DNA of 64,000 nt, taken from NCBI GenBank assembly GCA_900319955.1, contig ONQM01000003.1:17654-81653 (forward strand), written 5' to 3'. Shown in pieces: positions 1-23,217 of the stretch (the first letter of the stretch is position 1; each line of letters starts with the position of its first letter). The notes under the pieces were generated by a model. That model saw only the letters and a list, made by a program, of their open reading frames with translations, was not told the DNA's origin and ran no database searches. A program made the translations under genes and the position numbers. This DNA is from an uncultured Eubacteriales bacterium (lineage in GTDB: Bacteria; Bacillota_I; Bacilli_A; RF39; UBA660).

Positions 1-3000
1 TTATGATCAACAGGCCTATGTACATGTAAAGTATAAACTCTAACACTTCCAGCTTCACTAGTAACAGTAAATGTAACATCAGTGTCACCAGCTTCAAAAA
101 TATAATTACCATTTCCGGCAACAGAAGCTGTATCACTTGCAGGAACACCCTCCAAATTAACATGCGTATCTTTAGATTCTAATTGAAGGTCGTATTCAAA
201 TGTATTATAATCCCAATTTTCAGGAGTAATGGTACCCTTGTCAGAAACAATACCAGCAAGATAATCATTTTCACTTGGTTGATAAGGAATAGAAACTTTA
301 ACATAACCATCTCCAGCATGACCAGTTTCAACACCTTTACCATTAACAGTAGAAAATTGTTGAGTTCCAGCTAAAGTACTTGCATCAGTAAGTTCATAGT
401 CTTTTGGAACAAGCCATCTATTACCAGAGAAATCATCTGAAAAATCATCGGTAACTAGTGAATAAGTATCCTTTGTAAATACAAATCCAGATCCACCGCC
501 ACCTCCAGATGACCAACCGCCTGTAGCACCAGATCCACCACCGTAGAAGCCGCCTCCGCCGCCTCCACCATAGTAGCCGCCTCCTGAATTAGAAGCATTA
601 GCACCATAAGCAAATTTTCCATTAGCACCTCTATGAGAACCATAAATACCATAAACACCGCCAGATGTTTGAGTAGCACCACCAGCACTAGTACCACATG
701 AACCTTGACCAGTACGGCCAACACCATTAAGTCCACCACCGGCACCACCTGCAGCACATCCATCACTTCCGTGACCGCCGCCGCCACCAGCGATTAATAT
801 TCTATTATAAAGAGTATTTTGATCATATCTAATGTCTGATGCACCACCACCATAACCAGCAAGTGAAGTACCACCACCATTAAATCCACCATTATCTCCA
901 GAACCACCTGGACATAAGTATAACTTTGTACCTTTAGCAAGATATACAGAACCTTTTGAGTAGCCACCTAGACCACCATTACGTCCTCCTTGTGCTCCCC
1001 AAGCCTCTAATAAATAAACATGATCATAAGGAGCAACCCAAGTAGTACAAGAACCATTATAACTTGCAACTTCTTCATAACCAGCAATAGAAATTCTTGT
1101 TACATTAAATACATATAAAGTATCATCAACATGTGGTTCATGAACCTTAACAGTTATTGTATAATGATCATTTCTTATATAGCCATCTCCCTCTACTTTA
1201 GCAGTAGCCTCTCCATCATAAAATTCAGGAATAAGAGTAGCAGCAGCTATATAACTTTCAAGTTCAATATTGTAAAAAGTCTTTCCATCTTCCATCTTAT
1301 AATCAAAAGCTTTACCAGAACCAGAAGTCAAAGTAATTTTCTTTAATTTAGATGAATGAGGATAAGTAACATGAATTGTATAAGTCTTTGTACTAGTATT
1401 TAACTCATTAGTAACTTTGACAACTAAATAATAATCATTCTTTTTAACCTTAACATGAGCCTTACTAACAGCATGATCAGTTTCAACATTAAATAATTTA
1501 TCAGGATTATCTTTTTCATATATTTCAATCTTTTGATCAGCAGATCCTTTGTCAATATTTAAATCATATTCATCTCCAGTATAAGGAAGATTAGCAGAAT
1601 AATTGTAATTACCAGATGAAAAATCAGTACCACCATAACTTGAGAATGATTTACCATCAATCTTTAAATCATTTAAAGAATCAATATCATTAGCTTCCCT
1701 ATTAATATTATAAGTAAATACATCAATAGCACCATTAACATAAGTAATAGAAACTGGATAGGCATTATCTCCTACATGAATCTCATGTTTACCATCACCA
1801 GAATATTTAAGTACAGATTCATCATCAGTAGTATCAACTGAAAATTCAACAATTGAAGAAGTTTTATCAACAGTACCATTATAAGATTTTGTATCATAAT
1901 CGAATTCATGATCTAAAGTGACATTATCACTAACATTAATTTTATATTTATAAGAAAGGGTAAAATTAATTCTAATATATCCATCTCCAGCATTACCTGT
2001 CATAGTTGAAGTACCATCATGAGTTGGCATAGCTGAATAACCATTTATAATAATAGGATCAGTCATATAGTGAAGTTTAGATACCTCATATCCTTCAGGT
2101 GCATACTGCGAATAAGCGCTGCACCAAACATATGAAGAACCACCACCTGCACCATCATCATCATCACCACTGTAATCAGGATAGTTATAACCACCACCAT
2201 ACCAGCCACCACCACCGGCTGATATATAAGTGCCAGCAGTAGTAAATGCATTAGCACCATATCCAAATGAACCACCATCGCCAGCACCAGACATAGTTCC
2301 AGGATTACCAGGATTACCACAACCAGCACCATTTCCAATAGAGTCTCCCGGACCACCAGTACCGCGTGCACCGGCAGCACCACCGCCACCAGCAACTAAT
2401 ATTCTATTATAAAGTGATGTTCCACCAATTCTAACATCTGATGCACCACCACCATAGATATTTACAGGAATAACAAGATTTTGGTTTCCATCTCGGTATG
2501 AATATGGCTTGCCACCACCATTCCAGCCTTGACCAGTAGAACCATTACAACCAACATATAAATAAATTGTTTGTCCTGCAGATAAGAATGTTTTTCCACT
2601 TGCATAGGAACCATTTCCACCAGCAGGACCACGATTTCCACCTTGTGCACCCCATGCTTCTATTGTATAAATTCCAGAAGCAGGAGCAACAAAATATTGA
2701 ACATCATGAGTACAAGTAAAGCCATAACTTCCGGTTGTATCTTTTTGCCAGTAATAACTAGGTTTATGGAAAGTAATTGTATATTTATTTTCAACACCCG
2801 TAATATTATTTGTTACAGTAAATGTATAAACATATTCTTTTAAATCACTGCTTGATATGTCATAATCACCTGTGTGACTTTCAGATAATGAATATCCAGC
2901 ATTAATTGCAACATTAACACGTATAGACTTAGTAGTTTCAGGTATAGTTAAAATATAATCATGTTTTGTATAATCAAAATCAATAGGAATATCTCCACCA

Positions 3001-5004: not shown

Positions 5005-5547
5005 TTATTTTGATTTTTTACTAGAAGTATTCTTCTTAGAAGATGTAATTTTCTTAGAATTATTTGATGTATTACTATTTTTAGCAGCTACTGTTCCTTT
5101 AGCTTTTTTTTCTGATTTACATACCAATCTTACAGACATTTTATAATCATTCTTCCCATAAGGTTTTTGTGGATAAATTGTTACCATAGTTTGTGTTTTA
5201 TCACAATCATCGCCAGTCTTAGGATCTTTAAATTCATAATCTTTAGGCTTACTTAAAGTATTTTGATATCTAGTCAAACTATCAAGAGAAACTTTAAGAC
5301 CTATACTACTAAAACTTTCCAAAAACTTTTCTCTATCATCTTTATTTTGACCTGTTGTTTTATAATAGTATGAATAAAAATCTTTACCTAAATCTTTCAA
5401 ATTATTTTCCATCTGTTTTTCTTTAGCAGATGCTGAATATTTATTATTATAAATACAAATTCCTGCAATTAAAGCAGCAATAACTATTACAACAATTATT
5501 AAAATAATCTTTTTATTTTCATTAAAAAATTTCTTTGCCTTCTCCAT
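5005..5547 (-). CDS. Hypothetical N-terminally membrane-anchored protein with a Lys/Ser-rich C-terminal tail
   Basis: 180-aa ORF. One N-terminal transmembrane helix (ILIIVVIVIAALIAGICIY) and a low-complexity KKxTSSKKSK C-terminus. No recognisable family. Confidence 0.55.
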   Translation of the reverse strand: MEKAKKFFNENKKIILIIVVIVIAALIAGICIYNNKYSASAKEKQMENNLKDLGKDFYSYYYKTTGQNKDDREKFLESFSSIGLKVSLDSLTRYQNTLSKPKDYEFKDPKTGDDCDKTQTMVTIYPQKPYGKNDYKMSVRLVCKSEKKAKGTVAAKNSNTSNNSKKITSSKKNTSSKKSK

Positions 5548-5713: not shown

Positions 5714-7250
5714 ATAGCTCTCCACTTTTTAGTGGGGTGCCTTTTTTTGGTCTTTTGTTGATATAAAAAGCAGAAAGTTAGATTTTTAGCACTATAAAAA
5801 CTTTCTGCTATTTTTAGTACCTAAAATACTAAATTTTAAGAATATTTATTTTTTCTTGTATTTTTGATTTTAGTATTTTTTAAATTTACTGGAGCATAAC
5901 TTTTGTGTAAAATTGCAAGTGTCCTTAATCTAAAAAATCCAAATTTTTTTATATCCATATGCTCTATCAATTATCTTATCAATTGTATTGTTATTTGCTT
6001 CAGTAAATCCATTTGAATATCTTTCATCTTTAAATGAATTAACAATAGGCTCTAACCAGTTTTTGATTATTTTAGCAGCGTCTATCATCTCAGGTATTTC
6101 TGATTTATTAAATTTCTTTATCCATTTTTCTAACTCTTCTTTTGTATTTTCATATTTAACATTTATTGTTATCCTTAAAAATTCTTCTTTTAATGAATAT
6201 GCTTTTGCAAGGTCTGTATCTATCTTTAACACTTCATTAAGTCTATCTATTTTAAATACCTCAACAAAAGTATTATTCCTTTTTATTTTCATAACACCAT
6301 ACCAAAAATCATTAAACTTGTCTTTAGTTTTTTTATTGGTTATTCCTTTATTATATTTTTCTTCTTTATCCTTTCTTTTTCTTATCTCACTTTTTGTTTC
6401 ACTAAATGATTTTAATAACAATATGCAGTTTATTCTATTCTTTAGAAGTCTATATCCATAACTAGTTTTATCACTTTCATATTTATGGACTAATCTTAAT
6501 CTGACATTGTCTAGACCTTTTGTTACATAACTAGTATAATGAAATGGGTCGGCGACAAATATAGCGTTTGGAAAACATATTTTCACGACCTCGTAATATG
6601 GTTTGTATAAATCATATATTACAACTTTAACAGACTTTCTATTTTTTACTTTTTTAAAGTATTTAATTAGAAAGTCTTTTTTTTGTTGGTAATATATCAA
6701 GTGTTATTCTTCTTAATGGATCATTTAATATAAATGAATACAATCCTGCATCTGTTTTAGTCGATGTTTCATCAAATGATATAACTTCTGGAAGTATTTC
6801 TACATTACTTGGATAATTTTTCATTGCCTCTTTTAATGTTTCTCTTACAAAGTTTGATGAAACATTATTTTCTTTTGCAATATTATCAATAGTTTTATCT
6901 CTATCAAATAAATCTTTTAGAACATTCTGTCTTGTTTTATTTGATATTTTTTCACCTTTACCAAGTGTTTCTATTTTTCTGTAAAAGATTTATCACAATC
7001 TTTCTTTCTATTAGATTTTATATAAACATATTTAATCTCTTTTCCTCCTTCCTTATCACTTTCAACATTAATTATGTCTAGTGAATCGTCAAGTCCTAAT
7101 ACTTTTCTTATTTCTTCTCTTTTTATTCTCTTTAACTCCTTCTGTAACACTCTATGTTACAGTAGAATTATTGCATATTATTGTCTCTATTGGAACCCCA
7201 CTAAACCTCGGAGATTTACAAAAAAAACCCCACCAAAAGGTGGAGACCCC
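5714..7250 (-). mobile_element. Degraded ISL3-family insertion sequence, about 1.5 kb, with imperfect terminal inverted repeats and a pseudogenised transposase
   Basis: The left end at 5716-5750 reads AGCTCTCCACTTTTTAGTGGGGTGCCTTTTTTTGG. The reverse complement of the right end at 7222-7250 reads GGGGTCTCCACCTTTTGGTGGGGTTTTTTTTG, matching about 27 of 31 positions. Between them lies an ISL3-type transposase remnant. Confidence 0.6.
5930..7150 (-). pseudogene. ISL3-family transposase (DDE_Tnp_ISL3) pseudogene, disrupted by at least two in-frame stops and one frameshift
   Basis: The 256-aa ORF 5930..6700 carries the ISL3 catalytic-domain signatures VADPFHYTSYVTKGLDNVRLRL and SNGFTEANNNTIDKIIDRAYGY. 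Upstream on the minus strand, other frames encode the ISL3 N-terminal region (IRKVLGLDDSLDIINVESDKEGGKEIKYVYIKSNRKKDCDKSFTEK*, then IETLGKGEKYQIKQDRMF*, then ...LPEVISFDETSTKTDAGLYSFILNDPLRRITLDILPTKKRLSN*). The junction with the 256-aa ORF (MIYYQQKKDFLIKYFKK) falls on an 8-T homopolymer at 6676-6683, so there is a -1/+1 frameshift there. No in-frame Met start is visible at the 5' end. Confidence 0.7.
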
Positions 7251-7338: not shown

Positions 7339-8127
7339 TTAAACAGCAGTAGAAAACATACCCATCATCGCAATTAAAAGTATAAGCATAACACCAATAC
7401 CAGTACAAATAAGCATTGTCATTGTTTGATTTTCCATATGTTCTAGACGCTCTTTATATTTTACTTCACGAGCCTTATTTTGAAGATTAGAAACACTTCT
7501 TGAAAACATCATTAATCTTTCTTGTTTTCTCTCTTGAGAACCAATTCCAAGTCTATATAAAAGTCTCATCATACGCATTGAATCTCTAACAGGATAATCA
7601 TTAGCAAACTCCATATAAGGATCAACTGTAGAATCACCTGCATTAATCTCTTCAACCATCTTCTTTAAACCAGGCTTAAAAACATCAGGAGCATCATCAA
7701 TTGAACGTGCAAGAGCAACTGGAACAGTATAATGCTGTATTAATATTTCTAGTCCTTTTAAGTAATAAGGAAGTAGTAAATCTATCTCATGTAAATGTTT
7801 CTTATAGAAATTTTTTAAAGACCAATAACTAGACTTAAATGTTAAGAAACCAACAACAACTGATATAACAATATTTAAAAGACTTACAGTATTCATAAAA
7901 AGTATTAAAAATACTATTCCAACTATTAAACCATTTCTAAGTCTTTGTTCAAAAAGTACATCAGGATCTACTTTATCTCCATACTTCATACGAACTAAAA
8001 AGTCATAATCACTTTCTCTTAAAAGATTAAAAAGTTTAGAATTATCTTTAGCAAACTTTTTTGTATCAATAGTTTTATTGTATACAAGAACAAATAAAAT
8101 AATTCCACCAAATATAAGGACTTCCAT
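7339..8127 (-). CDS. TadC-like inner-membrane platform protein (type II secretion system F-domain family)
   Basis: 262 aa with the TM/cytoplasmic domain/TM/TM layout typical of TadB/TadC/GspF-type platform proteins. It sits immediately downstream of a second paralogue and of a CpaF ATPase gene, and its start at 8127 overlaps the upstream stop, suggesting translational coupling. Confidence 0.55.
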   Translation of the reverse strand: MEVLIFGGIILFVLVYNKTIDTKKFAKDNSKLFNLLRESDYDFLVRMKYGDKVDPDVLFEQRLRNGLIVGIVFLILFMNTVSLLNIVISVVVGFLTFKSSYWSLKNFYKKHLHEIDLLLPYYLKGLEILIQHYTVPVALARSIDDAPDVFKPGLKKMVEEINAGDSTVDPYMEFANDYPVRDSMRMMRLLYRLGIGSQERKQERLMMFSRSVSNLQNKAREVKYKERLEHMENQTMTMLICTGIGVMLILLIAMMGMFSTAV

Positions 8128-9020
8128 TACTCAGCACCTACATTCTCGTTATAATATTTTTCTCCTTTAATGAGAAAATAACTATTAATCAAAATTATAC
8201 CATGAAGTAATAATTTAACATACCATCTATCAAGTAAAAGGATATAACTTTCCTTACCTAGTAAATACTGAACTAAAAGGACAAGTACATATAGCATAAT
8301 ACCAAATTGTAAGAACCTCTTATGGAAGTTAGCTCTATCAATTCTATCTCTGTAAACACCTTCAACAAGAGTATCGATATCAAGTTGCATCTGCTCTAGT
8401 GAGTCTGCTGAGTTTCTCGCACCTTCCTTAGTTATCTGTAAGAATAATTGATGCATATTTTTAACTATATAAAACGGATATAAATTATTAAAATATTTAA
8501 TTGATTCATCAATGGAACCATTTTTATAAGCAAGCTCTATCATTCTATCAACATCACCAGCAACTGGATCTTCAAGAAGTCCAGATTCTCTAACACCTTC
8601 CAAACTTTTAACAAAAGATTGTCGAGTTGCAAATTCCATAATAGTGTTAGATGTATATACCTGTATTTGTTCAAAGATAAACTCACTATATATTCTTTTA
8701 CTTCTCAAATAAGCAAGATAAGGAACAAGTAAAATACCAAGAAAAACATATAAAGCTGCAGTAAAGATGTTATAGAAATATAAGTATGCAATAAGTCCTG
8801 CAAAACCACCTATTAAAACACACTGTATAATATAATCTCTAGGCTTATATTCCTTACCCAACTGCTTTGTCTTCTCTCTTACTTTTTTATATGAATAAGG
8901 AGCAAACTTATCATAAATAGATGTTATTTGGTCATTAATAAATCTAGTCGCATTCTTACCACTATAACCTCGATACATCATTACAAATATAGCAATAACT
9001 AATAGTATAAATAATTCCAT
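8127..9020 (-). CDS. TadB-like inner-membrane platform protein (T2SS-F domain family)
   Basis: 297 aa with an N-terminal TM, a roughly 200-aa cytoplasmic domain and two C-terminal TM helices. It is a paralogue-like partner of the adjacent gene and sits directly downstream of the CpaF-type ATPase. Confidence 0.55.
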   Translation of the reverse strand: MELFILLVIAIFVMMYRGYSGKNATRFINDQITSIYDKFAPYSYKKVREKTKQLGKEYKPRDYIIQCVLIGGFAGLIAYLYFYNIFTAALYVFLGILLVPYLAYLRSKRIYSEFIFEQIQVYTSNTIMEFATRQSFVKSLEGVRESGLLEDPVAGDVDRMIELAYKNGSIDESIKYFNNLYPFYIVKNMHQLFLQITKEGARNSADSLEQMQLDIDTLVEGVYRDRIDRANFHKRFLQFGIMLYVLVLLVQYLLGKESYILLLDRWYVKLLLHGIILINSYFLIKGEKYYNENVGAE

Positions 9021-9025: not shown

Positions 9026-10435
9026 TTAACCTCCGTTACTCATATTTTGCATGACGTTACTTGCATCTATTTGTGGCATTACTGGAACTTGTATATTAGA
9101 AGTTTGTGCATTACTAGGAATATTTACTTGTGCAGCACTTTGAGCATCTACATTAACACTTGAATTTAATGATGAATTTTCACTTGCTAAATTAATGTTA
9201 GTTGCAGGAATATTTTCAGTACCTGCTACAGCTTTCTCTTCCATTGTACCACCATTAAGTGCATTATTTAAAGCATTACTTTTTTCTTCACTTGGACCTG
9301 TTTCAGATTCTGCTTTCTGTGAAGCTTCAGCAAATCTCTTTGATTCATTCTCTTCTATTACCTTCTCAATATCAACATCAGGTAAATGAGCAAGAATATC
9401 ATCAATATTAAGATTTTGATTTTCTAGATATTCAACCAAATGTTTAGAAGGACGAGACATAATAGGATCCATATCATAAAGTTTTCTATAAAGAGTATGA
9501 CATACAGGTTTGTTATCTTCATCAACATAAAATTCAACAACCTCATCTACTTCACGATGGAACTTACCATACTTTTTAGAATAATAAGCTTTAATATGAA
9601 CACCAATTTGTACATAACGATAAATTGTATTTAAAAACTGATCAACATCAATATCTGTCTCAAGTAATGAATAAAGACGATAAGGAATTGCACTAGCTTT
9701 ATCAGCATGGATTGTTGATAAAATATTGTGTCCTGATGAAATAGAGTTACGTACAGCAGTAACTGCCTCAGCTGAACGAACCTCAGATAGTAAAATCCAT
9801 TTTGGATTCTGTCTCATACAGGTAACTAATACATCAGAGTATGATGCAACGTTATTAGTCTTCATTGCAACAATATCTCTAGTTGGAAAAATCTTATCAA
9901 GATGAAGTTCTAGAGTATCCTCAATTGTTATTATCTTTTCAGTCTCTTTAATATGACTTGCAAGATACTTAACAAACTCAGTTTTACCAGAACCAGTTTC
10001 ACCTGAAACAATTATGTTACAGTGTCCTTCAACACATTTCATTAATAAATCATGAATATCAGCAGTAAAATAATCTTCTGCAAGTAATTTTTCTTTCTTT
10101 AACCTTATCTTAGCAGGTGTTTTACGAATAACACATGCAATACCATTAGTAGCAATAGAAGGATGTACAAAGTTAAGACGTAACTCACTACTTTCTGCAT
10201 CTAGAAAAGGCTTAGCATTATTAAAGGTTGTACCCATAACATTAGAGCACTGAAAAGCAAGCTTTTCCATAAACTCTGGAGTACAACCTGGAACTTCTAC
10301 ACGAATGGAACCTTGAGATAAAGAACGAATCCAGATTTGTCCGCCATTACAATACGAGATATCGGTTATATCATCATTATCAAGTAGTGGTCTTAAAGGG
10401 CCAAAATCTAACTTATCAAATATATTTTCATTCAT
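9026..10435 (-). CDS. CpaF/TadA-family (VirB11-superfamily) secretion ATPase with a roughly 100-aa Ser/Asn/Ala/Gln-rich C-terminal tail
   Basis: Walker A motif GETGSGKT, Asp box ITIEDTLEL, Walker B-like LSEVRSAEA and His box STIHA, in the order characteristic of CpaF/TadA/VirB11 hexameric ATPases. The C-terminal low-complexity extension is ...ASQKAESETGPSEEKSNALNNALNGG...SSLNSSVNVDAQSAAQVNIPSNAQTSNIQ. Confidence 0.85.
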   Translation of the reverse strand: MNENIFDKLDFGPLRPLLDNDDITDISYCNGGQIWIRSLSQGSIRVEVPGCTPEFMEKLAFQCSNVMGTTFNNAKPFLDAESSELRLNFVHPSIATNGIACVIRKTPAKIRLKKEKLLAEDYFTADIHDLLMKCVEGHCNIIVSGETGSGKTEFVKYLASHIKETEKIITIEDTLELHLDKIFPTRDIVAMKTNNVASYSDVLVTCMRQNPKWILLSEVRSAEAVTAVRNSISSGHNILSTIHADKASAIPYRLYSLLETDIDVDQFLNTIYRYVQIGVHIKAYYSKKYGKFHREVDEVVEFYVDEDNKPVCHTLYRKLYDMDPIMSRPSKHLVEYLENQNLNIDDILAHLPDVDIEKVIEENESKRFAEASQKAESETGPSEEKSNALNNALNGGTMEEKAVAGTENIPATNINLASENSSLNSSVNVDAQSAAQVNIPSNAQTSNIQVPVMPQIDASNVMQNMSNGG

Positions 10436-10473: not shown

Positions 10474-11280
10474 TTATTGCATTGAATCTGTCCAATAAGT
10501 GACATTATTGATAAAGTCTTTAATATCTTTAGATGAAAGCTTTAAATCACCTGGATTAGACTTCTTACTTTCTGCAGTAGGAACTGGAGAAAGTTCAGTA
10601 CTATAGTTTCTTAAGTAATCTGCTTTCTTAAGTAAGATATAATATTCTTCTGGTACAGCAAATATTAACTGAGATGGTACTGCATTTTCATTTGTATTAG
10701 AGAATACATTCTTACCACTACTATCTCTAACAGCAAGTACTTTAACATTCTCAAGTAACTTACCAACCATAACTTTACCATTATTAGGATCATTTTCATC
10801 AGTAGATCCATAAGTAGCCTTAAAGTAAAGATCAATATAATTACCAGGGTATATTGAATTACTATAAGTAGTTTCCATATTAACACTCATATAATATAGA
10901 ACATATCCTTTTGGATAATCAAGAATAATACTATCAGGTAATTGATCTTTTTCAACAACACATCTAGTATAGAAAAGACTTCCAGAAGGAATCAAACAAT
11001 CTGCACCAGAGTATTTATCAATAACACTCTGTTTAGATCTATAAATATCACCTTTTATCATAGAAGGAGGAACTTGAGCTTCCCCAACCATGTCTTCTGT
11101 TATTTGAGTACTTGGATTAATTTCCTGAAGAGCATAAGGAACACTAATTGGATTAGTAGCTTGTTTAACTCTCCAGTTATAACCTATATATAATACAAGA
11201 ATAGCAAGTATTACACCAAGAACTGTAACAGTATTCTTATTAGTTAAAAATTTCTTTAAGCCAACCGTTATATTATTCAT
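10474..11280 (-). CDS. CpaB-like Flp/Tad assembly protein (N-terminal TM anchor plus SAF-like domain)
   Basis: 268 aa. TM helix VTVLGVILAILVLYIGY followed by a SAF-like segment (...PYALQEINPSTQITEDMV...), resembling the CpaB/RcpC N-terminus. It is positioned directly upstream of the CpaF-type ATPase, as in tad loci. Confidence 0.5.
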   Translation of the reverse strand: MNNITVGLKKFLTNKNTVTVLGVILAILVLYIGYNWRVKQATNPISVPYALQEINPSTQITEDMVGEAQVPPSMIKGDIYRSKQSVIDKYSGADCLIPSGSLFYTRCVVEKDQLPDSIILDYPKGYVLYYMSVNMETTYSNSIYPGNYIDLYFKATYGSTDENDPNNGKVMVGKLLENVKVLAVRDSSGKNVFSNTNENAVPSQLIFAVPEEYYILLKKADYLRNYSTELSPVPTAESKKSNPGDLKLSSKDIKDFINNVTYWTDSMQ

Positions 11281-11290: not shown

Positions 11291-11794
11291 CTATTTACTT
11301 GGTAAATTATTTAAACCATTATAACTTGTAATCTTTAAATCTTTAATATAATCCTTATTTTTAGTTGTAACAGCTAAATTGTCTTTATTCTTAGTTTCAA
11401 TAATCATATCTGCAGTAGTTGTAATATCAACTTTATTTTCCCCACCTAATGCTTTTACAACAACAGTATTCTTAGGAGAAATTACTCTTATACTAACCTT
11501 AGGAGGTGTTTCATTAATATCATAAACTTTAATGTCATAATCACGAGTTCCCTCAACATTATTAGCAAAACGTTTTACAAAACTTTCCATAAACTTCTCT
11601 TTATCCATTCTGAGTAAGCCACTCTCTCTAAAGAAAGTATTATCAACTGCATCATTCATAGCAGCTTCTGTTGTCTCTTTTAATAGATAATAATCAAGTT
11701 CAGCACCAGTTTGTTGTCCACTAATAACACTAATTGAATAGAAACCTAATATTGCCATTAATATAATTCCAATTGTTAAAAATGCCTTATTCAC
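11291..11794 (-). CDS. Hypothetical small membrane-anchored protein (candidate pseudopilin-like or accessory component)
   Basis: 167 aa. N-terminal hydrophobic segment AFLTIGIILMAILGFYSISVISGQ, then a soluble domain. No TadE/Flp consensus was recognised. Confidence 0.5.
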   Translation of the reverse strand: MNKAFLTIGIILMAILGFYSISVISGQQTGAELDYYLLKETTEAAMNDAVDNTFFRESGLLRMDKEKFMESFVKRFANNVEGTRDYDIKVYDINETPPKVSIRVISPKNTVVVKALGGENKVDITTTADMIIETKNKDNLAVTTKNKDYIKDLKITSYNGLNNLPSK

Positions 11795-11811: not shown

Positions 11812-14800
11812 TTAACTAGCACTCTTTATAAAATTATTAAGAGTAGTCTTAGTATCCTCATCTATATCATAACTTGTTAAAGGATCACATGCTGTTCCAT
11901 TAAGAATATTATTACATTTTAATGCTTCTTCACTAGGCTTTCTAAGTAAAGAACCATAGCCTTCTGTAGTATTCTTACTACCCTCTGGTGAAGTTCTTAA
12001 AAATTTACTTACATAATACTTAATAGTTGGAATATCACTGCTTGGAGCATCATAGCCACCTTTTTCAGATGTATCTAATTTTGTAGCATCAGTATAATAT
12101 CCTGCATTCTTATATGCATCCCAATAATCTTCATTATTAATTGTCTTATAAGTACCATTTTTAAAATAAGTATAATCTTTATCACCATTTGTAATTTTAC
12201 GAATATTTTCTATATTCTTTTTATTTAAATAAATTTCATAATCAAGTTCATTATCATTGTTATAAATACTATCACCTTGAGATTTAATCTTAGCTGCTAA
12301 AAGTGTTGGTGTAATAGGATAATTAGCTATAGATAAATTAGTAGCATTAACACTCCAGTTAAAACCAGGTTGTCTGGAAGCAGAAGCACTTGTTTTTGCA
12401 TCTGCAACCTTCTTTACATTACCTGCTTGATACTCTACAGTACTTGTTGAAACTTTAGTAGATTTAGAAACCTTATTAGATGTTGGTTTAGTTCCACTTG
12501 ATGTAAACATATTTTGACTGTCATATGATCTAGCAACATAGTTACCCATTCTAGTTGTACATGTTTTATCAGTCTTATTATCACATGATGAATCAGGAAT
12601 TGATGAACATCCAGTACCAGTACAAGATACAGTCTTACAATTTGGATCCTTTGTTGTATCACAACTTGAAGTTTTTGTAGGATTTGGACAATTCTTAGTA
12701 TTAATTGGTTCAGGATCATCATCAAGTGCATAATAACATCCAGTCTTAAACTTCCAATCAAACATACCAAAGCTTTCTACCTTACTTATAATGTTATAAA
12801 CATCTGGTGTTGATTTACTAACTTTATCAAGTGTACAACCATTCTTAGCTCTTAGATATTCATCGAAGAATTTAACATTAACTTTCTTAGCAGTTGATGG
12901 TGTACAATACTTACCACTAACTTTCTTATACCATTGAGATTCTGCTGACATATCATCATAAACTACATAACCATGTTTATTTTCAATCCAAGCACCAGGG
13001 AATGTAATTATACCATGATATTGTGTAATTAATGCTTTAGTATTATTTTTCCAAGTACAATCAATCTTATTTCCATTTGCATCAGTATAAGAATCAGTCT
13101 TACCATCACAACCATCTACAACCTTACCAGCACACTGTCCAGCATTTAATTCAACAACTGTTGGGAATGAATGTGAAGCATTATTTAATTCTTTCTTCTT
13201 CTGCTCTTCCCCTTTTGCACTTGGGAACTTTCTACATAATTCTTGATCATAATTGCTTCCCTCACAAGATTGCTTATCAGTACTTGTATTATCAGTATCA
13301 TCATTTGCAGTCATAGTATAAGTGATACTATTGTCTTTACAATCATTTGCAGTATTTATACAATCAGCAATTTTACCAGTAAATGAAGATAAATCTTTTT
13401 CAAATTGTTTTTCAATCTCACCGGCAGTATCATAACAAACTGAAGTTGATGAAGATTTAGACCATTTGCAATTCCAAGTACAATTTTCATTTCTTCTAAA
13501 TCCAACACCATCATTATGTTCATCTTTAGTAGTATTTGGATAATATGAAGCACCTTTTTCATACATACCTAAGAAGCATTTATTCCAACCAAGTTTCTTA
13601 CATTCACTATAATTTGTTTCAGGAGAACATGTTGTGCTACCAACTAGCCAACTATTCTTATAATGATAATCTGTACAAACAGTTAAAGCTGCCATAGATT
13701 TATTCTTAAAATAATACTTAGCATATTTAGTCCAATAGCAATCAGAACTTGTTGCACTATCAGAGCCTTGAACATGTGAGTTAACATAATCATAAACTGC
13801 ATCAATATATCCATCAGGAACTTTTCCAGGAGTCGTACCACTTGCTAAAGTACCAGGGAAGTTTTTACATATTTCAGATTCTGTAAATTTAGAACCCTTA
13901 ACAGTATCGGTTTTCTTTAACTTAATTACATCACTAGATGTTGATTCTTTACCTTCTGTTGTTAATACATTATTATTTGAATTTTGTGCTAAATTATTTG
14001 ATACTTTTGATGTACTTGATACTTTTGTACCATATGCTTTATTAAAACATTTATTTATACATTTATCAGAATATTTTCCACCATCACAATCCAAAACGCA
14101 TAAATCAAATTCATCATCTGGTCCAGCTGATGCTGTATGTAAATCAGGTTTATTAGAATTTCCACCACCACATATAGGTGTATCTTGACAAGAAGCATTT
14201 TCATATTTTCTAAAATCAGGAATCTTATCAAAATCAGGTTTTACCACACATGATGTAGTACTCTTAATTTCTACTTTATATGTAAAACAATTACCAGGAG
14301 TTACAGCTTGAGGTGCATCAAATGCTATTGCAAGTTGTTCACGACAAGTATAACTGCAAACATTTTGAGCAACAGTTTTCTTAGAAGTTAATCCACTTTG
14401 ATTGAATAAAAGCATATCAGCTTTTACATCTTCAGCCTTATCATAATATAAATATTTATAAGTTTTTTCATTATCAAGTCTATTATCACAAGTTAACATA
14501 TCTTTTTTATTAGATTCTGCATTTTCATAACCAGTTTTATTAGTAGCTTGGTCTTTTAATTTGTCTTTACTGTCACGACCCTTTTTACTTAAGTCAGGAT
14601 CATCGACCTTTATCCATTTTTTATCTGATCCTTGAGTTAAATCAGGTAGTTTTGGATTATCAGGATCAATTCCTAAATCTCTCATTTTAGCTCTTTCAGA
14701 AATATAGTCTTCAAAAGTTTTTTCAAATGATGCCATATCTTCCTTTATCTTAGTAAGAATTTCATCTGAAATATTATAATCAACATAAGCATCTTTTGCA

Positions 14801-15969
14801 TCGTATCCTACAACCTTATCTCCACTAACAGAAACAGCTAAATTACCATTAGAATATCGAGGGAAACAAGGACCCATTGTTTTATTAACAAGAGCATCAG
14901 TATACTCATTCCATTCAGAATCAGATGCATGCTTATAGTATGATTTTACTGCCCATTCACATGCAGAGCCAGAACTAAAATCAGCAGATGTAGTTCTGTT
15001 TGTATTAGATGCAGCTATATTATTCAATATATTTGCTTCATCCTGTAAATCGCCACCATATGTTGTGTAATATGATTTTATTGTCATCTTCTTTTTGTTT
15101 TTCTTAGCATAAACTATGAATATTGCATATTCTCCACTATTTTCCACTTTAAAATCATATGTTGTATGCTTTGATGGTGTATAAGTTATAACTTTATCAT
15201 GTGGACCATTTGCATGATTTGCATACCACCAGTTTGTATATGCTTCTGCGCAAGTCTTATTGTTTACTCCTTTTTTGTTGCACGCATCTTTTTTCTTATA
15301 ATGTTTTACTTTTGCATCATATTCATCTTTATCAAAATCAACTGCTGCAATTTTTATTTTTTTATCTGTTGCATCCCCATTAGATATAAAAGTAACTGTT
15401 GAAGGGTCTGATATATGAAATTGGACTTGAAATCCAAATAATGATACATCAACTGGTTCTGGGTCAGTTAATGAACCTACATCAACTGAATCAGGATCAT
15501 CAACATCCTCATCTACATCAGGTTCTTCAGCTGTAGTAGTTGTAGTACTTTCATTTGAAGTTGTGCTTGAACTATTACTTGATGGTGTATATGAATTATT
15601 GCTAGTAGAACTGCTGCTTGAACTTGAGTTTGAATTAGAACTGTTAGAGCTTGCTTTAGCAACACATTCAGCATGTTTAGAATCAATTACATGTCTAGCA
15701 AAACCATCATTACATTTACAATTTGTACCTTTACTAGAAGCCCAAGAAGCATTTGCTTCGCAAGAACAAGTACTTCTACTAACTTTCTTACAATCACCAT
15801 TTTTCTTTTTGGCACCTGTACAATGACTTAATGTACCGCATCCATCAGCTGCATATACATTACTTTTGTTATTAAAATTTACATCGATTGTAAATCCAAA
15901 TAACATTACAATGGCTAGTAAAAATATTCCAACCCTCTTTTTATAACTATTTTTAGACATCTTCGCCAT
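11812..15969 (-). CDS. Giant cysteine-rich secreted protein (1385 aa) with a Ser/Thr-rich linker, an acidic region and many CxxC/C-rich modules
   Basis: Signal peptide MAKMSKNSYKKRVGIFLLAIVMLFGFTIDVNFNNKSNVYA-ADGCG. Poly-Ser/Thr linker SSNSSNSNSSSSSSSTSNNSYTPSSNSSSTTSNESTTTTTAEEPDVDEDVDDPD. Dozens of Cys are spread through the protein (e.g. TSSCDTTKDPNCKTVSCTGTGCSSIPDSSCDNKTDKTCT). There is no LPXTG-type C-terminus. The start overlaps the upstream sortase gene by 17 nt. Confidence 0.8.
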   Translation of the reverse strand: MAKMSKNSYKKRVGIFLLAIVMLFGFTIDVNFNNKSNVYAADGCGTLSHCTGAKKKNGDCKKVSRSTCSCEANASWASSKGTNCKCNDGFARHVIDSKHAECVAKASSNSSNSNSSSSSSSTSNNSYTPSSNSSSTTSNESTTTTTAEEPDVDEDVDDPDSVDVGSLTDPEPVDVSLFGFQVQFHISDPSTVTFISNGDATDKKIKIAAVDFDKDEYDAKVKHYKKKDACNKKGVNNKTCAEAYTNWWYANHANGPHDKVITYTPSKHTTYDFKVENSGEYAIFIVYAKKNKKKMTIKSYYTTYGGDLQDEANILNNIAASNTNRTTSADFSSGSACEWAVKSYYKHASDSEWNEYTDALVNKTMGPCFPRYSNGNLAVSVSGDKVVGYDAKDAYVDYNISDEILTKIKEDMASFEKTFEDYISERAKMRDLGIDPDNPKLPDLTQGSDKKWIKVDDPDLSKKGRDSKDKLKDQATNKTGYENAESNKKDMLTCDNRLDNEKTYKYLYYDKAEDVKADMLLFNQSGLTSKKTVAQNVCSYTCREQLAIAFDAPQAVTPGNCFTYKVEIKSTTSCVVKPDFDKIPDFRKYENASCQDTPICGGGNSNKPDLHTASAGPDDEFDLCVLDCDGGKYSDKCINKCFNKAYGTKVSSTSKVSNNLAQNSNNNVLTTEGKESTSSDVIKLKKTDTVKGSKFTESEICKNFPGTLASGTTPGKVPDGYIDAVYDYVNSHVQGSDSATSSDCYWTKYAKYYFKNKSMAALTVCTDYHYKNSWLVGSTTCSPETNYSECKKLGWNKCFLGMYEKGASYYPNTTKDEHNDGVGFRRNENCTWNCKWSKSSSTSVCYDTAGEIEKQFEKDLSSFTGKIADCINTANDCKDNSITYTMTANDDTDNTSTDKQSCEGSNYDQELCRKFPSAKGEEQKKKELNNASHSFPTVVELNAGQCAGKVVDGCDGKTDSYTDANGNKIDCTWKNNTKALITQYHGIITFPGAWIENKHGYVVYDDMSAESQWYKKVSGKYCTPSTAKKVNVKFFDEYLRAKNGCTLDKVSKSTPDVYNIISKVESFGMFDWKFKTGCYYALDDDPEPINTKNCPNPTKTSSCDTTKDPNCKTVSCTGTGCSSIPDSSCDNKTDKTCTTRMGNYVARSYDSQNMFTSSGTKPTSNKVSKSTKVSTSTVEYQAGNVKKVADAKTSASASRQPGFNWSVNATNLSIANYPITPTLLAAKIKSQGDSIYNNDNELDYEIYLNKKNIENIRKITNGDKDYTYFKNGTYKTINNEDYWDAYKNAGYYTDATKLDTSEKGGYDAPSSDIPTIKYYVSKFLRTSPEGSKNTTEGYGSLLRKPSEEALKCNNILNGTACDPLTSYDIDEDTKTTLNNFIKSAS

Positions 15970-16756
15970 CTCCTTCTAATATTTTTTTGATTTTTTTATA
16001 GTCCTTCTTTTCATGCATATCATAATTATACCCTTTATTACTATTTTTTACAAGTTTTCCATCAACTTTTAAATAATAATGATAAGGACCTAATAATCTC
16101 GTACACGTATATAAAGAAATTAACTTATCTTCTTTATTTACATCAATATCATATTTATAAATACTTTCTTTTAATGAGTCTTTTATAAATTTTTTCTTAA
16201 TTGTTTTTGTAATGCTATTAGGAAAATAATAAACTTCATTATCATTTATTATTGAAACACCATATATTTGATATAAATAATTAACATTGTTAAATGTAAA
16301 TTGTATATACTTATTTTTATCAGCAAAATCACTATAAACAAAAGCCATTAATGGTTCAAATCTTTGCAATTTCTTATCATTTACCTTTGGATGTGGTCCA
16401 ACATTAATATAGTTGTGACCAAAAATTGGAATAAAATCTGAAAGTTTTTTTTCAGGTTTATTAATCCAAGCATAATTATCAAGTGATGGATATGTTTCAG
16501 ATGAAACTGGCATATCAATGTTAGTACCTTGTACCTTAATCCATCCAATTACCTTATCTTTTTTACTTTTCTTTTTCAACTTCTCAACATTTTTTGTTCT
16601 ATCTTCTACCTTATATATAGGGAAAAATTTATTACTGATTTTCTCTCTATTTATAACAAGAATTATAGCAAACAAAATGAGAAGTAATAAAAGAATTATA
16701 ACATGTTTGTTTATCATCTTTGATGCTTTTTTTTCTTTTCTTATATTTCTTTTCAT
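15953..16756 (-). CDS. Class B sortase-like transpeptidase (SrtB family)
   Basis: N-terminal TM anchor. KVIGWIKVQGTNIDMPV matches the SrtB N-terminal signature (compare S. aureus SrtB IVGWIKLSGTSLNYPV and C. difficile SrtB IGWLQVQDTNINYPV). The His motif is IFGHNY and the Cys motif is KLISLYTCT (TLxTC-type). The position aligned to the catalytic Arg is uncertain and may be His. Confidence 0.7.
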   Translation of the reverse strand: MKRNIRKEKKASKMINKHVIILLLLLILFAIILVINREKISNKFFPIYKVEDRTKNVEKLKKKSKKDKVIGWIKVQGTNIDMPVSSETYPSLDNYAWINKPEKKLSDFIPIFGHNYINVGPHPKVNDKKLQRFEPLMAFVYSDFADKNKYIQFTFNNVNYLYQIYGVSIINDNEVYYFPNSITKTIKKKFIKDSLKESIYKYDIDVNKEDKLISLYTCTRLLGPYHYYLKVDGKLVKNSNKGYNYDMHEKKDYKKIKKILEGDGEDV

Positions 16757-16775: not shown

Positions 16776-18527
16776 CTAATAACTTATTGTATATGGGTCT
16801 TGCTTAGTTCCAGAACCACTAACAACTACTGCATCATTTCTTAAATAACCTGCAATCTTTGTTGAAGATGCATAAGCAAAATTTGCAATTGGAAAATAAA
16901 TTGTACCATTTCCACTACCATAATATTGCTTATATTTTTTACTATACTCTATATACCAAGTTTGACCATTAATATTTGAGTAAAAATCAAATAAAGATGG
17001 CAACGATATTTTAATATTATATGTTTTTGATTCATGTTTTCCATTGTATGTTGGATATGAACTATATATATTTGCAGAAACTTTATGTTTTTTAAATATA
17101 TTAGTACTAATTTGTCTAGAAATATTATTTTCTACTGAATAACCAATATTATTATTTTTATTTGGGTTGTATTTACTATTATTAACTATGTTATCATCAA
17201 ACTCATAAGAATAATTTGATATAACTTTAACATTTTTTGAATCATTAGAAGAAACTCTAAATAATTGTCCTCTATATGAAATATACTCTCCTACTCTTAG
17301 TTTACTAACTTTTGTTCCACCTTTTAATTCCTTGAAGTTATCTATTACATATGGATTCTCATAAGATCCAGTTCCTTTTTTAATTAAAGTACTCTTTTTA
17401 ATAACAAAAACTGGCCTAACACTAAATATATAGTTCTTATTATAGTCTAAATATTTACTAGACTGACCATTAAATGAATATCTAGTTGTCCATGCCTCTT
17501 TACTATTTTTACTATTATACGTCCAACTAATAGTATCAGGATAAAGAAAACTTCCCCCCTCCTTTGTTAAGCTACTATTATACTCATTTATTGACAAAAG
17601 TCCAGAATTTCCAATATTTTTCTTTGAATTACATGTTGTTATTTTGTCTTTATCTTTAGATGAAACGGTATCAGAACAGAAATTATAGTTTGTAACAACA
17701 TACTTCTTACTATCATTAGTTAAAGTGTCATAAAAATCATTCAAGTAATCTTTTATTGAATTAAAATCAATATGACCTACATCTTCATTTGCAACTATCT
17801 TTGTATTACCATCACTATCAAGTCCTACTATTCTATAAAGTTGTCCACTAAACATTATGTAATTATCTCCATCACCAACATAAACATTACTCTTACCAGT
17901 AGCTTTCTCAACTGTCTTAGAAAGATTTTGTGTAACCTTAACAGTTCTAGTTACTTCAGTTTTATTCTCTAAAGTATCAACAGCACTATAAGTAATAGTA
18001 TATACTCCATTCTTACTTGTATCAACATCACTTGATACAGCAACATCTTTTGCATTTATTTTACCATCATTATTATCTATAACACTCTTAACACCAGGAT
18101 CTTTAAATTTAGAATATCTTTCTACATTAATAGTATCATTACCATTTAATGTAATAACAGGTCCAGTATGATCTATATTAGAAGAAAATATACCACATTT
18201 TAAATAAGTATAATATAAATACTGTCCTTCTTTTCTTTTTACTTTAACAAAACTATGTCTAGTATCACAAGTATCATGATTATAAGCAGTTCTTAAATCA
18301 GGAATATACTTTTTATCTAAAAGTTCAACACCATTAATAGTTCTAATTTCTCCTTCTTCTGGTAAAAGATTTTTATTTATTTCAAAATATCTTTTAGCAC
18401 CTTTAAGTAAAGTACTTTCATTTTCATTAAACTTAATTAATGGAAATATAAATAATAAATAAATAATTAGTAAAACTCCCGCAATTACAAGTATTTTAGT
18501 AACTGACTTTTTAGTATCATTTTTCAT
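16776..18527 (-). CDS. N-terminally anchored surface protein with a bacterial Ig-like (DUF5011-like) domain and GxGxxxxPY(V/T)I motifs
   Basis: 583 aa. Type-II-style N-terminal TM (ILVIAGVLLIIYLLFIFPLI). HTGPVITLNGNDTINVERYSKFKDPGVKSVIDNNDGKI matches the DUF5011 Ig-like pattern. GTGSYENPYVIDNF and GSGTKQDPYTISY occur in the C-terminal half. No C-terminal sorting signal. Confidence 0.65.
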   Translation of the reverse strand: MKNDTKKSVTKILVIAGVLLIIYLLFIFPLIKFNENESTLLKGAKRYFEINKNLLPEEGEIRTINGVELLDKKYIPDLRTAYNHDTCDTRHSFVKVKRKEGQYLYYTYLKCGIFSSNIDHTGPVITLNGNDTINVERYSKFKDPGVKSVIDNNDGKINAKDVAVSSDVDTSKNGVYTITYSAVDTLENKTEVTRTVKVTQNLSKTVEKATGKSNVYVGDGDNYIMFSGQLYRIVGLDSDGNTKIVANEDVGHIDFNSIKDYLNDFYDTLTNDSKKYVVTNYNFCSDTVSSKDKDKITTCNSKKNIGNSGLLSINEYNSSLTKEGGSFLYPDTISWTYNSKNSKEAWTTRYSFNGQSSKYLDYNKNYIFSVRPVFVIKKSTLIKKGTGSYENPYVIDNFKELKGGTKVSKLRVGEYISYRGQLFRVSSNDSKNVKVISNYSYEFDDNIVNNSKYNPNKNNNIGYSVENNISRQISTNIFKKHKVSANIYSSYPTYNGKHESKTYNIKISLPSLFDFYSNINGQTWYIEYSKKYKQYYGSGNGTIYFPIANFAYASSTKIAGYLRNDAVVVSGSGTKQDPYTISY

Positions 18528-18545: not shown

Positions 18546-20102
18546 TTATTTTATATCTAATATGTACCTTTTATTTCTTATTGTACATATTATATCTAAA
18601 TCATTACTTGATGCCTCTTTATTTGTTAATTTAATAAATACTTCTTTACCATCATTATGAGTTGAAACTGCATTTTTTACATCATCATATTTATATTTTT
18701 TACTCTTTCCTACTCTGTATTTAATTTTACCATACTCATTTAAAAAGTCAATAAAATCTTCCCCTTCAAAGTCACTACCAGCAAAAGTAATTTTGAGTAT
18801 TTTGCCTTTATTATTTCTTACACTATCTGTATTTACCTTACAGTCATCAGCAGCTTCACAGTAGTATCTTCTATAAGTAAAATTATCACCAATCTCTGCA
18901 GTTAATGGAGTTAACTCTTTATAACTTCCATCCATATATTCAAATTTAATTTTTTTATTTAAATTATAAGTACCAATATCTTTGATATTGCTTATATCAG
19001 TAATATTTAATTTTATTTTTCTTAATATATTTAGATTATCTAGCTCCTGATAATATAAAACAAACTTATTATTCTTAAGCTTCTCATCTTCCTTAAATAT
19101 TAAATAAACTTTCTTGCCTTGTCCACTATATAAGTTGATGTTATCATCAACCCCACTACCAATATCTTTAAATGAATCATTATAAAATGTATTATAAATT
19201 TTTATAGATGATTTATTAACTAAATGATATCTATCAAAATTAACTGTAACTCTTCTATTAGATCTATTAATAACATTAACACCAATTATTACAAACTTAT
19301 TTCCCTTTTCTATAACATTACCTGCATAATCTTTATCAGTAACATAAGCATCAGTAATAGTAATATTATAAATACCAGCATTAAAGCTTTTACCTTGCTT
19401 ATAACTTCTATGTGTTATAAAGAAATTAAATATATTAAATATAAGTATTATTGAAAGTCCAGTAAGAGCTATATTACAAACAAGCTTATGTTCAAAGTAA
19501 AAATACTTAATATTTCTTAAAACTCTATTAAATACCCTTCTAATACTTCTTTTATCAAAGTCAAAAGATACTTCAAACTCTGCTCTATCATCTTCAGAAA
19601 GCTCTAAGAATTCTTTATCTTTTTCGAATCCAAACTTCTTAATATCTGCTCCAAGTATTCTAGCAAGTAAAAGAAACATAATAGGATACATTAGGAAATG
19701 ACTTATATTAATAATATCTCTATAAGGAAGAATACCTGAAAGTTCTGAAAGAGGAGTATAATCACTAAAGTAATTTGAAGCTCCATTAACGCCAACAAGA
19801 ACTAAAACAAATATAGCAAAATAAACAAGATAAATCTTCCAAGGTTTTTTCTTTCTAACAAGAAGTACCATTAAAGCAAGACATGCAAGAATAACAAATA
19901 TAACTGCTAAATAGAAAAGTACTCCAACATGACTTGAAAAGGACTCTACACTAGCATCATAAGACTCAAATCTAATAAACTCCTTAACAAAATTTAATAT
20001 ATTAAGAAGTTTAAAATAAATGAAAACTACACATGCTAAAATAACTATATGTATTTTCTTAAAGTTTTTAATTAAAAAGGCATAAGGTTTTCTAAATATC
20101 AT
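18546..20102 (-). CDS. Polytopic membrane protein (4-5 N-terminal TM helices) with a large C-terminal extracytoplasmic domain; first gene of the operon
   Basis: 518-aa ORF, hydrophobic N-terminal third and a soluble C-terminal domain. It is preceded by a 190-bp intergenic region. Confidence 0.6.
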   Translation of the reverse strand: MIFRKPYAFLIKNFKKIHIVILACVVFIYFKLLNILNFVKEFIRFESYDASVESFSSHVGVLFYLAVIFVILACLALMVLLVRKKKPWKIYLVYFAIFVLVLVGVNGASNYFSDYTPLSELSGILPYRDIINISHFLMYPIMFLLLARILGADIKKFGFEKDKEFLELSEDDRAEFEVSFDFDKRSIRRVFNRVLRNIKYFYFEHKLVCNIALTGLSIILIFNIFNFFITHRSYKQGKSFNAGIYNITITDAYVTDKDYAGNVIEKGNKFVIIGVNVINRSNRRVTVNFDRYHLVNKSSIKIYNTFYNDSFKDIGSGVDDNINLYSGQGKKVYLIFKEDEKLKNNKFVLYYQELDNLNILRKIKLNITDISNIKDIGTYNLNKKIKFEYMDGSYKELTPLTAEIGDNFTYRRYYCEAADDCKVNTDSVRNNKGKILKITFAGSDFEGEDFIDFLNEYGKIKYRVGKSKKYKYDDVKNAVSTHNDGKEVFIKLTNKEASSNDLDIICTIRNKRYILDIK

Positions 20103-20295: not shown

Positions 20296-20703
20296 ATGAT
20301 GAAAAAAGTAGTAAAAGTATTATTAATAGTTATTTCTTTAATGTTACTAACTGGTTGTAAAAATAATATGGAAAGAATTACATATAGTGATTTAGAAGAT
20401 AAAATAAAAGATAAAGATACATTTATAATGGAAGTATCACAAGATGGTTGTAGTCATTGTGAAGAATATAAACCAATTATAGATGAAGTATTAAACGATA
20501 ATAATTTAACAGCATATAATTTAAATATAACTTATCTAAGTGAACAAGATTATAATAAATTTGATAAAAAATATACATTTGAAGGAACACCAACAACTAT
20601 GTTCTTTAAAGATGGTAAAGAAGTTTTATCAAGTAGACTTGTAGGTACAGTTAGTAAAACAAAATTAAAGAAAGAATTAAAAAGATTAGGTTACATCAAA
20701 TAA
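20296..20703 (+). CDS. Secreted thioredoxin-fold lipoprotein (CxxC thiol-disulfide oxidoreductase-like)
   Basis: Lipobox LLTGC. CxxC motif CSHC. cis-Pro-type motif EGTPTTMFF. 135 aa. Confidence 0.75.
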   Translation: MMKKVVKVLLIVISLMLLTGCKNNMERITYSDLEDKIKDKDTFIMEVSQDGCSHCEEYKPIIDEVLNDNNLTAYNLNITYLSEQDYNKFDKKYTFEGTPTTMFFKDGKEVLSSRLVGTVSKTKLKKELKRLGYIK

Positions 20704-22989: not shown

Positions 22990-23130
22990 AAAAATATATA
23001 TGATTCATCTTTTGTTATAATGTTAATTTTATACTTTGTAATGAATCTAACGATTTCCCGTAATAGCATCCGCCGAATAATTCGATAACTATTAACCTCG
23101 TTAACTTTAGAAGTCTGGCGCTTATAATAA
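22990..23130 (-). ncRNA. glmS ribozyme: glmS ribozyme (GlcN6P-dependent self-cleaving riboswitch) in the glmS 5' UTR
   Basis: The minus-strand RNA reads ...A^GCGCCAGACUUCUAAAGUUAACGAGGUUAAUAGUUAUCGAAUUAUUCGGCGGAUGCUAUUACGGGAAAUCG... This matches the conserved core AGCGCCAGAACU / GACGAGG / GUUAUCGAAUUUUCGGCGGAUGC, and the cleavage-site A-G maps to 23122/23121. Confidence 0.8.
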
Positions 23131-23217
23131 ACTTACAACCTTTCTCATTTATTATATTAAAATAATTATAATATTAAAAAAAAAGAAAGTCAAAATACTT
23201 TTGAAAAAAAATATATT

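Follow-up and report, generated by a model that had tools for sequence, protein, structure and literature searches.

A large cysteine-rich protein with a variable N-terminal region encoded in a Tad-like gene cluster of an uncultured Eubacteriales bacterium

Comparison with described systems

In the conjugative thin pilus of IncI plasmids (R64, TP114), the PilV minor pilins are adhesins that set recipient specificity (PMC9045228, PMC5430464), and Streptococcus sanguinis PilB and PilC are modular minor pilins of type IV pili (PMC8179133, PMC9934059). The present analysis concerns a gene that may have a comparable role. It is an open reading frame (ORF) at positions 11812-15969, minus strand, of a 64,000-nucleotide (nt) stretch of DNA from an uncultured Eubacteriales bacterium (GenBank GCA_900319955.1, contig ONQM01000003.1, positions 17,654 to 81,653), and this whole stretch is called the window below. 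The ORF encodes a cysteine-rich protein with a variable N-terminal region and a conserved C-terminal third. The reading proposed here, with a probability of roughly 45%, is that a divergent Tad-like (type IV filament) machine has the protein as an exposed subunit for binding or specificity, stabilised by disulfides and docked through its C-terminal third, because that third is constrained and the remainder is exchanged between strains.

PilV would be the closest functional parallel. It is a variable adhesin on a type IV filament beside a type IV secretion system (T4SS), it governs partner specificity and it varies by DNA rearrangement. PilV differs in being a true pilin of about 450 amino acids, in which a site-specific shufflon switches the C-terminus inside a single cell. 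The cysteine-rich protein has no pilin N-terminus, varies in its N-terminal two-thirds and does so allelically between strains, and it has no sequence or fold similarity to PilV. PilB and PilC offer a second likeness, as bulky adhesive modules on the type IV filament of a single-membrane bacterium. Their modules, however, are carried by a pilin domain that has a class III signal peptide, and their folds are known (vWA-like, lectin), whereas the cysteine-rich protein has a Sec-type signal, no known fold and no sequence shared with them.

The locus resembles Tad loci in its CpaB/RcpC protein, its CpaF/TadA-type ATPase, its two membrane proteins and, in relatives of the window, its small pilin-like and pseudopilin-like genes. 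It differs in that the cysteine-rich protein has no vWA or TadE/TadG domain (TadG as known from Aggregatibacter loci), the TadB/C-like proteins have no hidden Markov model (HMM) match and no prepilin peptidase is seen, while sortase, Ig-like, DUF5411, thioredoxin and T4SS-like genes are extra. PrgB of pCF10 is a large, plasmid-borne, sortase-associated surface protein that is encoded with T4SS genes and carries known adhesin domains as well as an LPXTG signal. The cysteine-rich protein, in contrast, has no sorting signal and no plasmid matches, and its locus lies beside housekeeping genes. A further likeness is to a predicted eight- to nine-gene operon in Roseburia, Ruminococcus and Eubacterium, which combines CpaF, PilC/GspF, DUF5411 and an internalin-like protein and which, in the available part of its description, is flagged as an unknown secretion-related system (Miller et al. 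2022, PMC9523054). As described in that part, it shares with the present locus the DUF5411 protein, the CpaF-type ATPase, a membrane platform protein and an Ig/internalin-like surface protein, and the same part makes no mention of a large cysteine-rich protein, a sortase, a thioredoxin or T4SS-like genes (PMC9523054).

Protein family, conserved locus and variable cassette

The protein belongs to a large unnamed family and is not an orphan. An exhaustive profile search with residues 441-1385 finds 578 cluster representatives at E <= 1e-3 and 505 at E <= 1e-10. The first-pass annotation of this DNA, made from the sequence alone, had missed this family, whose members are mostly 850-1150 residues long. 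The exhaustive search is needed because low-complexity words saturate the candidate list of a word-indexed search, which undercounts the family: queried with the whole protein it returns five relatives and one species among 185,579 genome representatives, and with a 72-sequence profile it returns ten relatives. All of the family motifs are present in the window protein (CxxxCxExVxVxYGPP..AG.CF, CDGGKYTQxCINKCY, FPGxWIxNKxG, FGxFxWNFxxxCFYA, GFNW..ATNL and GCNN). N-termini inspected across the family are ordinary signal peptides with VxA sites. Nine family members scanned against Pfam give no match, sequence and profile searches of the PDB with the protein and with family profiles give nothing meaningful, and tblastn of the family against plasmids gives no match. 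Of 20 cluster representatives, one has a name on record, a hypothetical protein in a metagenome-assembled genome labeled 'Bacilli bacterium'.

The position of the gene is constant. Besides the window, the comparison covered its four closest relatives and, through six contig look-ups, eight loci from outside its clade. Each of these loci, the window included, has a family member with the sortase-like gene on one side and the DUF5411 gene on the other, and in the shared gene order CpaB and the ATPase come downstream of it. In two lineages a tandem pair of paralogues occupies this position (L008 6623-13096; L010 6535-13018), and the L010 copy, which is the copy tested, has an hhalign probability of 100. 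Downstream, the relatives encode a pilin-like protein of 49-65 residues with weak Pilin_N/Tad matches (E 0.01-0.05), one or two pseudopilin-like proteins with leaders such as ALG/GYF (a slash marks the cleavage point here and below) and a protein of about 328 residues. No prepilin peptidase is seen in the locus stretches read. In L011 and L012 there then follow a T4SS_pilin-like gene (E 7e-5), a gene for a TrbL_4 protein (38.6 bits; cut-off 27) and one for a TraC-like protein, whose match lies at the locus edge and comes from precomputed annotation. L010 has only weak matches of these types, one of them to TrbL_4; the T4SS-like part is clear in L011 and L012 alone, where it is partly covered, and is absent from the window. 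The flanking housekeeping genes vary by lineage, with glmS and GtrA common to the window and its sister species. The sister species also has, at L001 18720-21432, an acyltransferase_3 gene and a gene for a 507-residue polytopic membrane protein between the TadC-like and pilin-like genes.

Within the cluster, the cysteine-rich protein is the least conserved and fastest-evolving product. Window proteins were compared with their counterparts in L001, L008, L011 and L014, and the identities, in that order, are 41%, 28%, 29% and 30% for the cysteine-rich protein, 56%, 42%, 36% and 39% for the sortase-like protein and 65%, 43%, 38% and 44% for the Ig-like protein. The corresponding values are 88%, 71%, 60% and 69% for the CpaB-like protein, 82%, 76%, 75% and 72% for the ATPase and 91%, 75%, 68% and 78% for the TadB-like protein.

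The variation is concentrated in a cassette with sharp boundaries, which would make the locus a natural strain marker. The window and L013 have about 100% nucleotide identity from 13324 down to 10600 (96-100% in each 150-nt interval). Upstream of the last dense mismatch, at 13324, and through the sortase gene, identity is 56-80%, interrupted by a 96% island over the 3' end of the sortase gene and the 5' end of the cysteine-rich gene. A second pair, L007 and L001, has flanks of 97-100% identity around a cassette of about 4.2 kb with 52-89% identity, which takes in the final ~280 residues of the Ig-like protein, all of the sortase gene and the initial ~850 residues of the cysteine-rich protein. 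Divergence of the Ig-like C-terminus is seen in this further-reaching pair. The downstream breakpoint of each pair is no more than about 30 residues away from the motif CKD(N/E)SxTYxM(T/S)ANDD, and alleles cross species, the window and L007 alleles being closer to each other than those of L007 and L001. The pattern is read as putative recombinational exchange of a module under diversifying selection. No silent copies of the gene and no shufflon repeats are seen in the window.

Protein architecture, cysteines and operon

The ORF is intact and encodes 1385 residues when counted from the first ATG. It had been placed correctly at the outset, with its strand left out. The true start is probably the second ATG (M4, at 15960), because an AGGAG box lies 9 nt ahead of it and the N-termini of all relatives begin with MSKN or MSNN. 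The protein would then have 1382 residues and the gene would therefore overlap the sortase stop by 8 nt; the 17-nt overlap given originally is correct from the first ATG. A fusion of pseudogenes, which the first-pass annotation had named as a possible refutation, is excluded because intact full-length homologues exist down to about 25% identity.

The protein begins with a Sec-type signal peptide (residues 1-41; 15847-15969, minus strand, as for all parts of the gene) made up of a basic n-region, GIFLLAIVMLFGFTI as the hydrophobic stretch and the site VYA/AD. Signal peptides were assessed by pattern, by eye and with a simple script, and the order MSKNSYKKR, VGIFLLAIVMLFGFTI and then VYA/AD is that of a type I signal peptide. 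The protein has a single hydrophobic segment, at residues 12-32, in agreement with the signal peptide claimed earlier. A lipoprotein is rejected, as there is no Cys at +1. Next comes a Cys-rich head with eight Cys (residues 42-105; 15655-15846), which is confined to the window's five closest relatives and has zero Pfam matches when scanned alone, followed by a Ser/Thr/Asn-rich linker with an acidic stretch (residues 106-175; 15445-15654). The variable body (residues 176-882; 13324-15444), which has the 56-80% nucleotide identity to L013, is predicted from the structural model to contain a beta-sandwich along with helical parts and long beta-hairpins, and a Ser/Thr linker lies within it. The family signature core (residues 494-646; 14032-14490) is conserved across 147 members and holds the motifs CxxxCxExVxVxYGPPxAVxAGxCFxYxVxVxSxVxC, over long beta-hairpins, and FDxCVxxCDGGKYTQxCINKCY, a twin CX3C helical hairpin. 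The C-terminal third (residues 883-1385; 11815-13323) is 95-100% identical per 60 residues between otherwise divergent alleles and contains FPGAWIxNKxG, YCTP..VN, FGxFxWxFxxGCYYA, a Cys/Ser/Thr-rich spacer and a GFNW...ATNL domain. The Cys-rich head, the linker, the acidic DVDEDVDDPD and the late Cys cluster are all found as first quoted.

Searches for known domains and signals in the protein agree with the absences that had been noted by eye. Pfam and NCBIfam scans give zero matches, including for TadE/TadG and vWA domains (the nine family members scanned with Pfam have none either) and for adhesin and toxin domains, so that no known adhesin or toxin family is recovered by these scans or in the PDB. 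Neither a sorting signal (an LPXTG/NPQTN-like motif with a hydrophobic stretch and basic tail) nor a C-terminal hydrophobic segment is found in the protein, and choline-binding, SH3b, LysM or other wall-binding repeats have no Pfam match at E <= 0.01. No catalytic motif and no enzyme match is found in the protein, and no invariant His or other catalytic signature exists among 147 members. A Cys peptidase of the NlpC/P60 or CHAP type is rejected for want of an invariant His, and a thioester adhesin is rejected as there is no conserved Gln partner, the consensus QAGP being SAGP in the window protein.

Structure prediction, which the first-pass annotation had suggested together with a Foldseek search, recovers no known fold. 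AlphaFold with a 72-sequence alignment gives a model of residues 186-1385 with a predicted local distance difference test (pLDDT) score of 71.6 and a predicted template modeling (pTM) score of 0.59; a model from a 5-sequence alignment (pLDDT 32) was discarded. In the retained model, a beta-sandwich at the N-terminus is accompanied by helical parts and by two disordered spacers rich in Ser/Thr; the most conserved motif forms three beta-strands of 14-25 residues, and the twin CX3C motif forms a helical hairpin. Foldseek finds nothing at E <= 1e-3 in the PDB and nothing among viral models, and fold resemblance is limited to Ig/FN3-like beta-sandwiches. By these PDB and viral-model searches, the predicted core is without a known fold.

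The protein contains 51 Cys (3.7%, against 1.36% in the window's other long ORFs), of which 36 are invariant in the six closest homologues. The Cys share of inspected family members is about 2.4-4.2%, with a mean of 3.4% over 148 members, and 19 Cys columns are conserved at >= 90% among 147 members. Losses occur in pairs (628/637, r = 1.00; 594/845, r = 0.71; 1352/1361, r = 0.73). The number of Cys after the signal peptide ranges from 24 to 55 and is odd in 138 of the 148 members (93%), which suggests, as the simplest reading, many disulfides and one conserved unpaired Cys. Candidates for the unpaired residue would be Cys 494, 538, 542, 561, 574, 600, 830, 834, 870, 877, 946, 1022 and 1078.

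A thioredoxin/PedC-like lipoprotein gene (20296-20703, plus strand; lipobox LLTGC, active site CSHC) is transcribed divergently from the cluster. The CSHC site resembles the CPHC of oxidising DsbA-type enzymes. A PedC/thioredoxin-like gene adjoins the cluster or sits two genes away in every lineage with recorded Pfam matches, and its product is plausibly a folding catalyst, a candidate dedicated oxidase or isomerase. Exported proteins of aerobic Firmicutes are reported to tend to exclude Cys (Daniels et al., PMC2823432), which makes a Cys-rich exported family worth attention, although the carriers of this family are probably anaerobes.

The gene sits in a tight minus-strand operon in which genes overlap or are separated by at most 38 nt. 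The first gene (18546-20102), of conserved synteny, encodes a polytopic membrane protein with a DUF4352-like domain, and the second (16776-18527) encodes an N-terminally anchored protein with a bacterial surface Ig-like domain. The sortase-like gene (15953-16756) and the cysteine-rich gene follow. Directly downstream are genes for a DUF5411 protein with an N-terminal membrane helix (11291-11794; 152 bits), a CpaB/RcpC-like protein (10474-11280; 30.8 bits against a cut-off of 28.8) and a T2SSE-superfamily secretion ATPase of CpaF/TadA/VirB11-like type (9026-10435; PF00437, 100.4 bits against a cut-off of 24.9), whose best NCBIfam matches are VirB11 and TadA types, all under cut-off. Two highly conserved polytopic membrane proteins occupy the TadB and TadC positions (8127-9020, 297 residues; 7339-8127, 262 residues). 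They have no HMM match, and PDB searches give nothing useful for the TadB-like protein or for the DUF5411 protein. A separate 180-residue protein (5005-5547, minus strand) with an N-terminal membrane helix and a Lys/Ser-rich tail resembles DUF5411 faintly (E 0.033).

Directly after the TadC-like gene the cluster ends at an ISL3 element, represented by transposase fragments on the minus strand (5930-7150; listed fragment 5930-6700), where the relatives have pilin-like and pseudopilin-like genes. Counterparts of these genes are found nowhere in the window. The contig of a 99%-identical relative stops exactly at the ISL3 position, as expected for a repeated element. The first-pass annotation had placed the gene in the middle of a secretion operon; the Tad-like nature of the operon, the downstream T4SS-like genes of one relative lineage and the loss of the pilin half at the ISL3 element had escaped notice.

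The sortase-like protein has an N-terminal anchor and is class-B-like. It aligns with solved SrtB structures and keeps His114, Cys218 (in TCTR) and, near the position of the catalytic Arg, a Lys or Arg at 230, and it scores well under the family cut-offs of Pfam and NCBIfam. No recognisable sorting signal is found in any ORF of the window, L001, L008, L010 or L011. Its last ~38 residues (KVDGKLVKNSNKGYNYDMHEKKNYKKIKKILEGDGEDV; 15953-16070, minus strand) are near-invariant in the four closest loci, with the remainder 56-65% identical, and the DNA at this C-terminus is 96% identical inside the otherwise 56-80% cassette.

Possible role, and other features of the window

If the protein is the exposed binding subunit proposed above, it would be exported by Sec and cleaved at VYA/AD, and would then fold oxidatively outside the membrane, probably aided by the thioredoxin-like lipoprotein of the cluster. 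The C-terminal third would hold it at the machine, with the DUF5411 protein, the Ig-like protein, the pilin-like subunits and the sortase-like enzyme as candidate partners. The N-terminal ~880 residues, including the tethered Cys-rich head, would face outwards and set what is bound, and would be replaced through recombination between strains. Direct observation covers the linkage of the genes, the rapid evolution, the cassette and the Cys patterns; export, disulfides, docking and binding are deduced. Several points weigh against this reading. Surface location and contact with the machine are deduced as well, and retention at the cell is assumed, as the protein has no known anchoring signal. 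The structural model is only of medium confidence (pLDDT 71.6, pTM 0.59). The divergence of the sortase may come only from its position between two variable segments. In the window the pilin genes are missing after the ISL3 insertion, and this genome may have a machine that is split up or defective.

The first-pass annotation had proposed a cargo, tip or adhesin of the adjacent machinery. The link to the machinery is strongly supported by the position of the gene in all loci, and a tip or adhesin fits the fastest evolution in the cluster, the N-terminal cassette and the conserved C-terminal third. A cargo is less likely, because the variable end is N-terminal, no immunity-like partner gene is present and no catalytic motif is found. 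A secreted cargo or effector (a toxin or nutrient-capture protein) released by the neighbouring machine would account for a signal peptide without an anchor, and its variability could reflect an arms race. It is nevertheless quite improbable: a variable N-terminus with a conserved C-terminus is the reverse of polymorphic toxins, the gene downstream is the conserved DUF5411 gene and the cassette has no immunity-like gene, the 147 members share no invariant His or catalytic signature, no toxin or enzyme match exists and a Sec-exported protein of a single-membrane cell needs no second machine for its exit. Unlikely, too, is a structural scaffold or conduit that would take the filament or channel across the thick cell wall, in place of the secretin and its accessories, in a single-membrane bacterium. 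In its favour, the gene is core at every locus examined and adjoins CpaB/RcpC; the protein is large, with many conserved Cys and, in the model, very long beta-hairpins, and a secretin is neither present nor expected. Yet a load-bearing part would not usually have two-thirds of its length swapped between contigs that are otherwise identical, or be the least conserved product of its cluster, and the protein shows no sign of membrane or ring-forming segments and matches neither secretins nor T4SS channel parts in fold.

Two further alternatives turn on the N-terminus. The sortase-like enzyme might join the protein covalently to the wall or to another subunit, with the mature N-terminus (ADGCG) or a lysine as acceptor. 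The sortase gene overlaps the start of the cysteine-rich gene and its His, Cys and Lys/Arg are conserved; in addition, the first 47 residues and the sortase tail are near-invariant in the close clade, and the 96% nucleotide island covers the 3' end of one gene and the 5' end of the other within a divergent cassette. This N-terminal conservation stops short of the wider family, however, no donor sorting signal is found in the window or in four related loci and the sortase scores far under family cut-offs, which makes covalent joining very unlikely. The same conserved N-terminus, KKRVG/IFLLAIVMLFGF in the close clade, looks like a prepilin leader, and the protein could be imagined as a giant minor pilin, with its hydrophobic segment acting as a class III signal and as a pilin helix inserted in the filament. 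The fit is superficial: the leader is not family-wide, the family N-termini being ordinary VxA signal peptides with the site after the hydrophobic stretch and without a conserved Gly before it, there is no Glu at +5, and the pilin-like genes of the relatives use other leaders (ASG/E, ALG/G). A giant pilin is thus hardly credible.

A wider claim extends the binding-subunit reading. It holds jointly that the protein is an exchangeable, mating-type-like partner-recognition module of an undescribed chromosomal machine of uncultured gut and rumen Firmicutes, that this machine combines a Tad-like filament and T4SS-like channel parts with its own sortase-like enzyme and thioredoxin-like oxidase, and that the protein has a new fold and one conserved reactive or cross-linking Cys. 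Taken together, these statements are doubtful. The analysis defines a large protein family without a known fold. If the binding-subunit reading is true, a very common, unnamed cluster in Firmicutes of the gut and rumen codes for a cell-contact machine whose specificity is set by one swappable disulfide-rich protein, which would give a handle on how uncultured gut bacteria choose partners for adhesion or exchange and would be one more example of anaerobic Firmicutes with dedicated oxidative protein folding.

Several other features of the window were recorded. Two further proteins are rich in Cys or contain a set of them. One (58005-60011, minus strand) is an N-terminally anchored protein of 668 residues with 76 Cys (11.4%) and no Pfam match, in which about 35 tandem 10-residue units of the form NCDxDGDGKCDR precede a beta-rich C-terminal domain; the other (31149-31694, minus strand) has 181 residues, seven Cys (MGNCFDCTWFDPG...) and no Pfam match. 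A secreted protein of more than 1639 residues (2-4919, minus strand) runs off the left end of the window and has four ALK/LTK glycine-rich domains (PF12810, 401 bits) and cadherin-like domains, which explains the raised G+C of the first 4 kb. ComEC (Competence and metallo-beta-lactamase domains) and ComEA (SLBB and helix-hairpin-helix) are encoded at 44023-46732 on the minus strand, about 30 kb from the cluster. Finally, a glmS ribozyme (22992-23133, minus strand; 60.7 bits) lies upstream of glmS.

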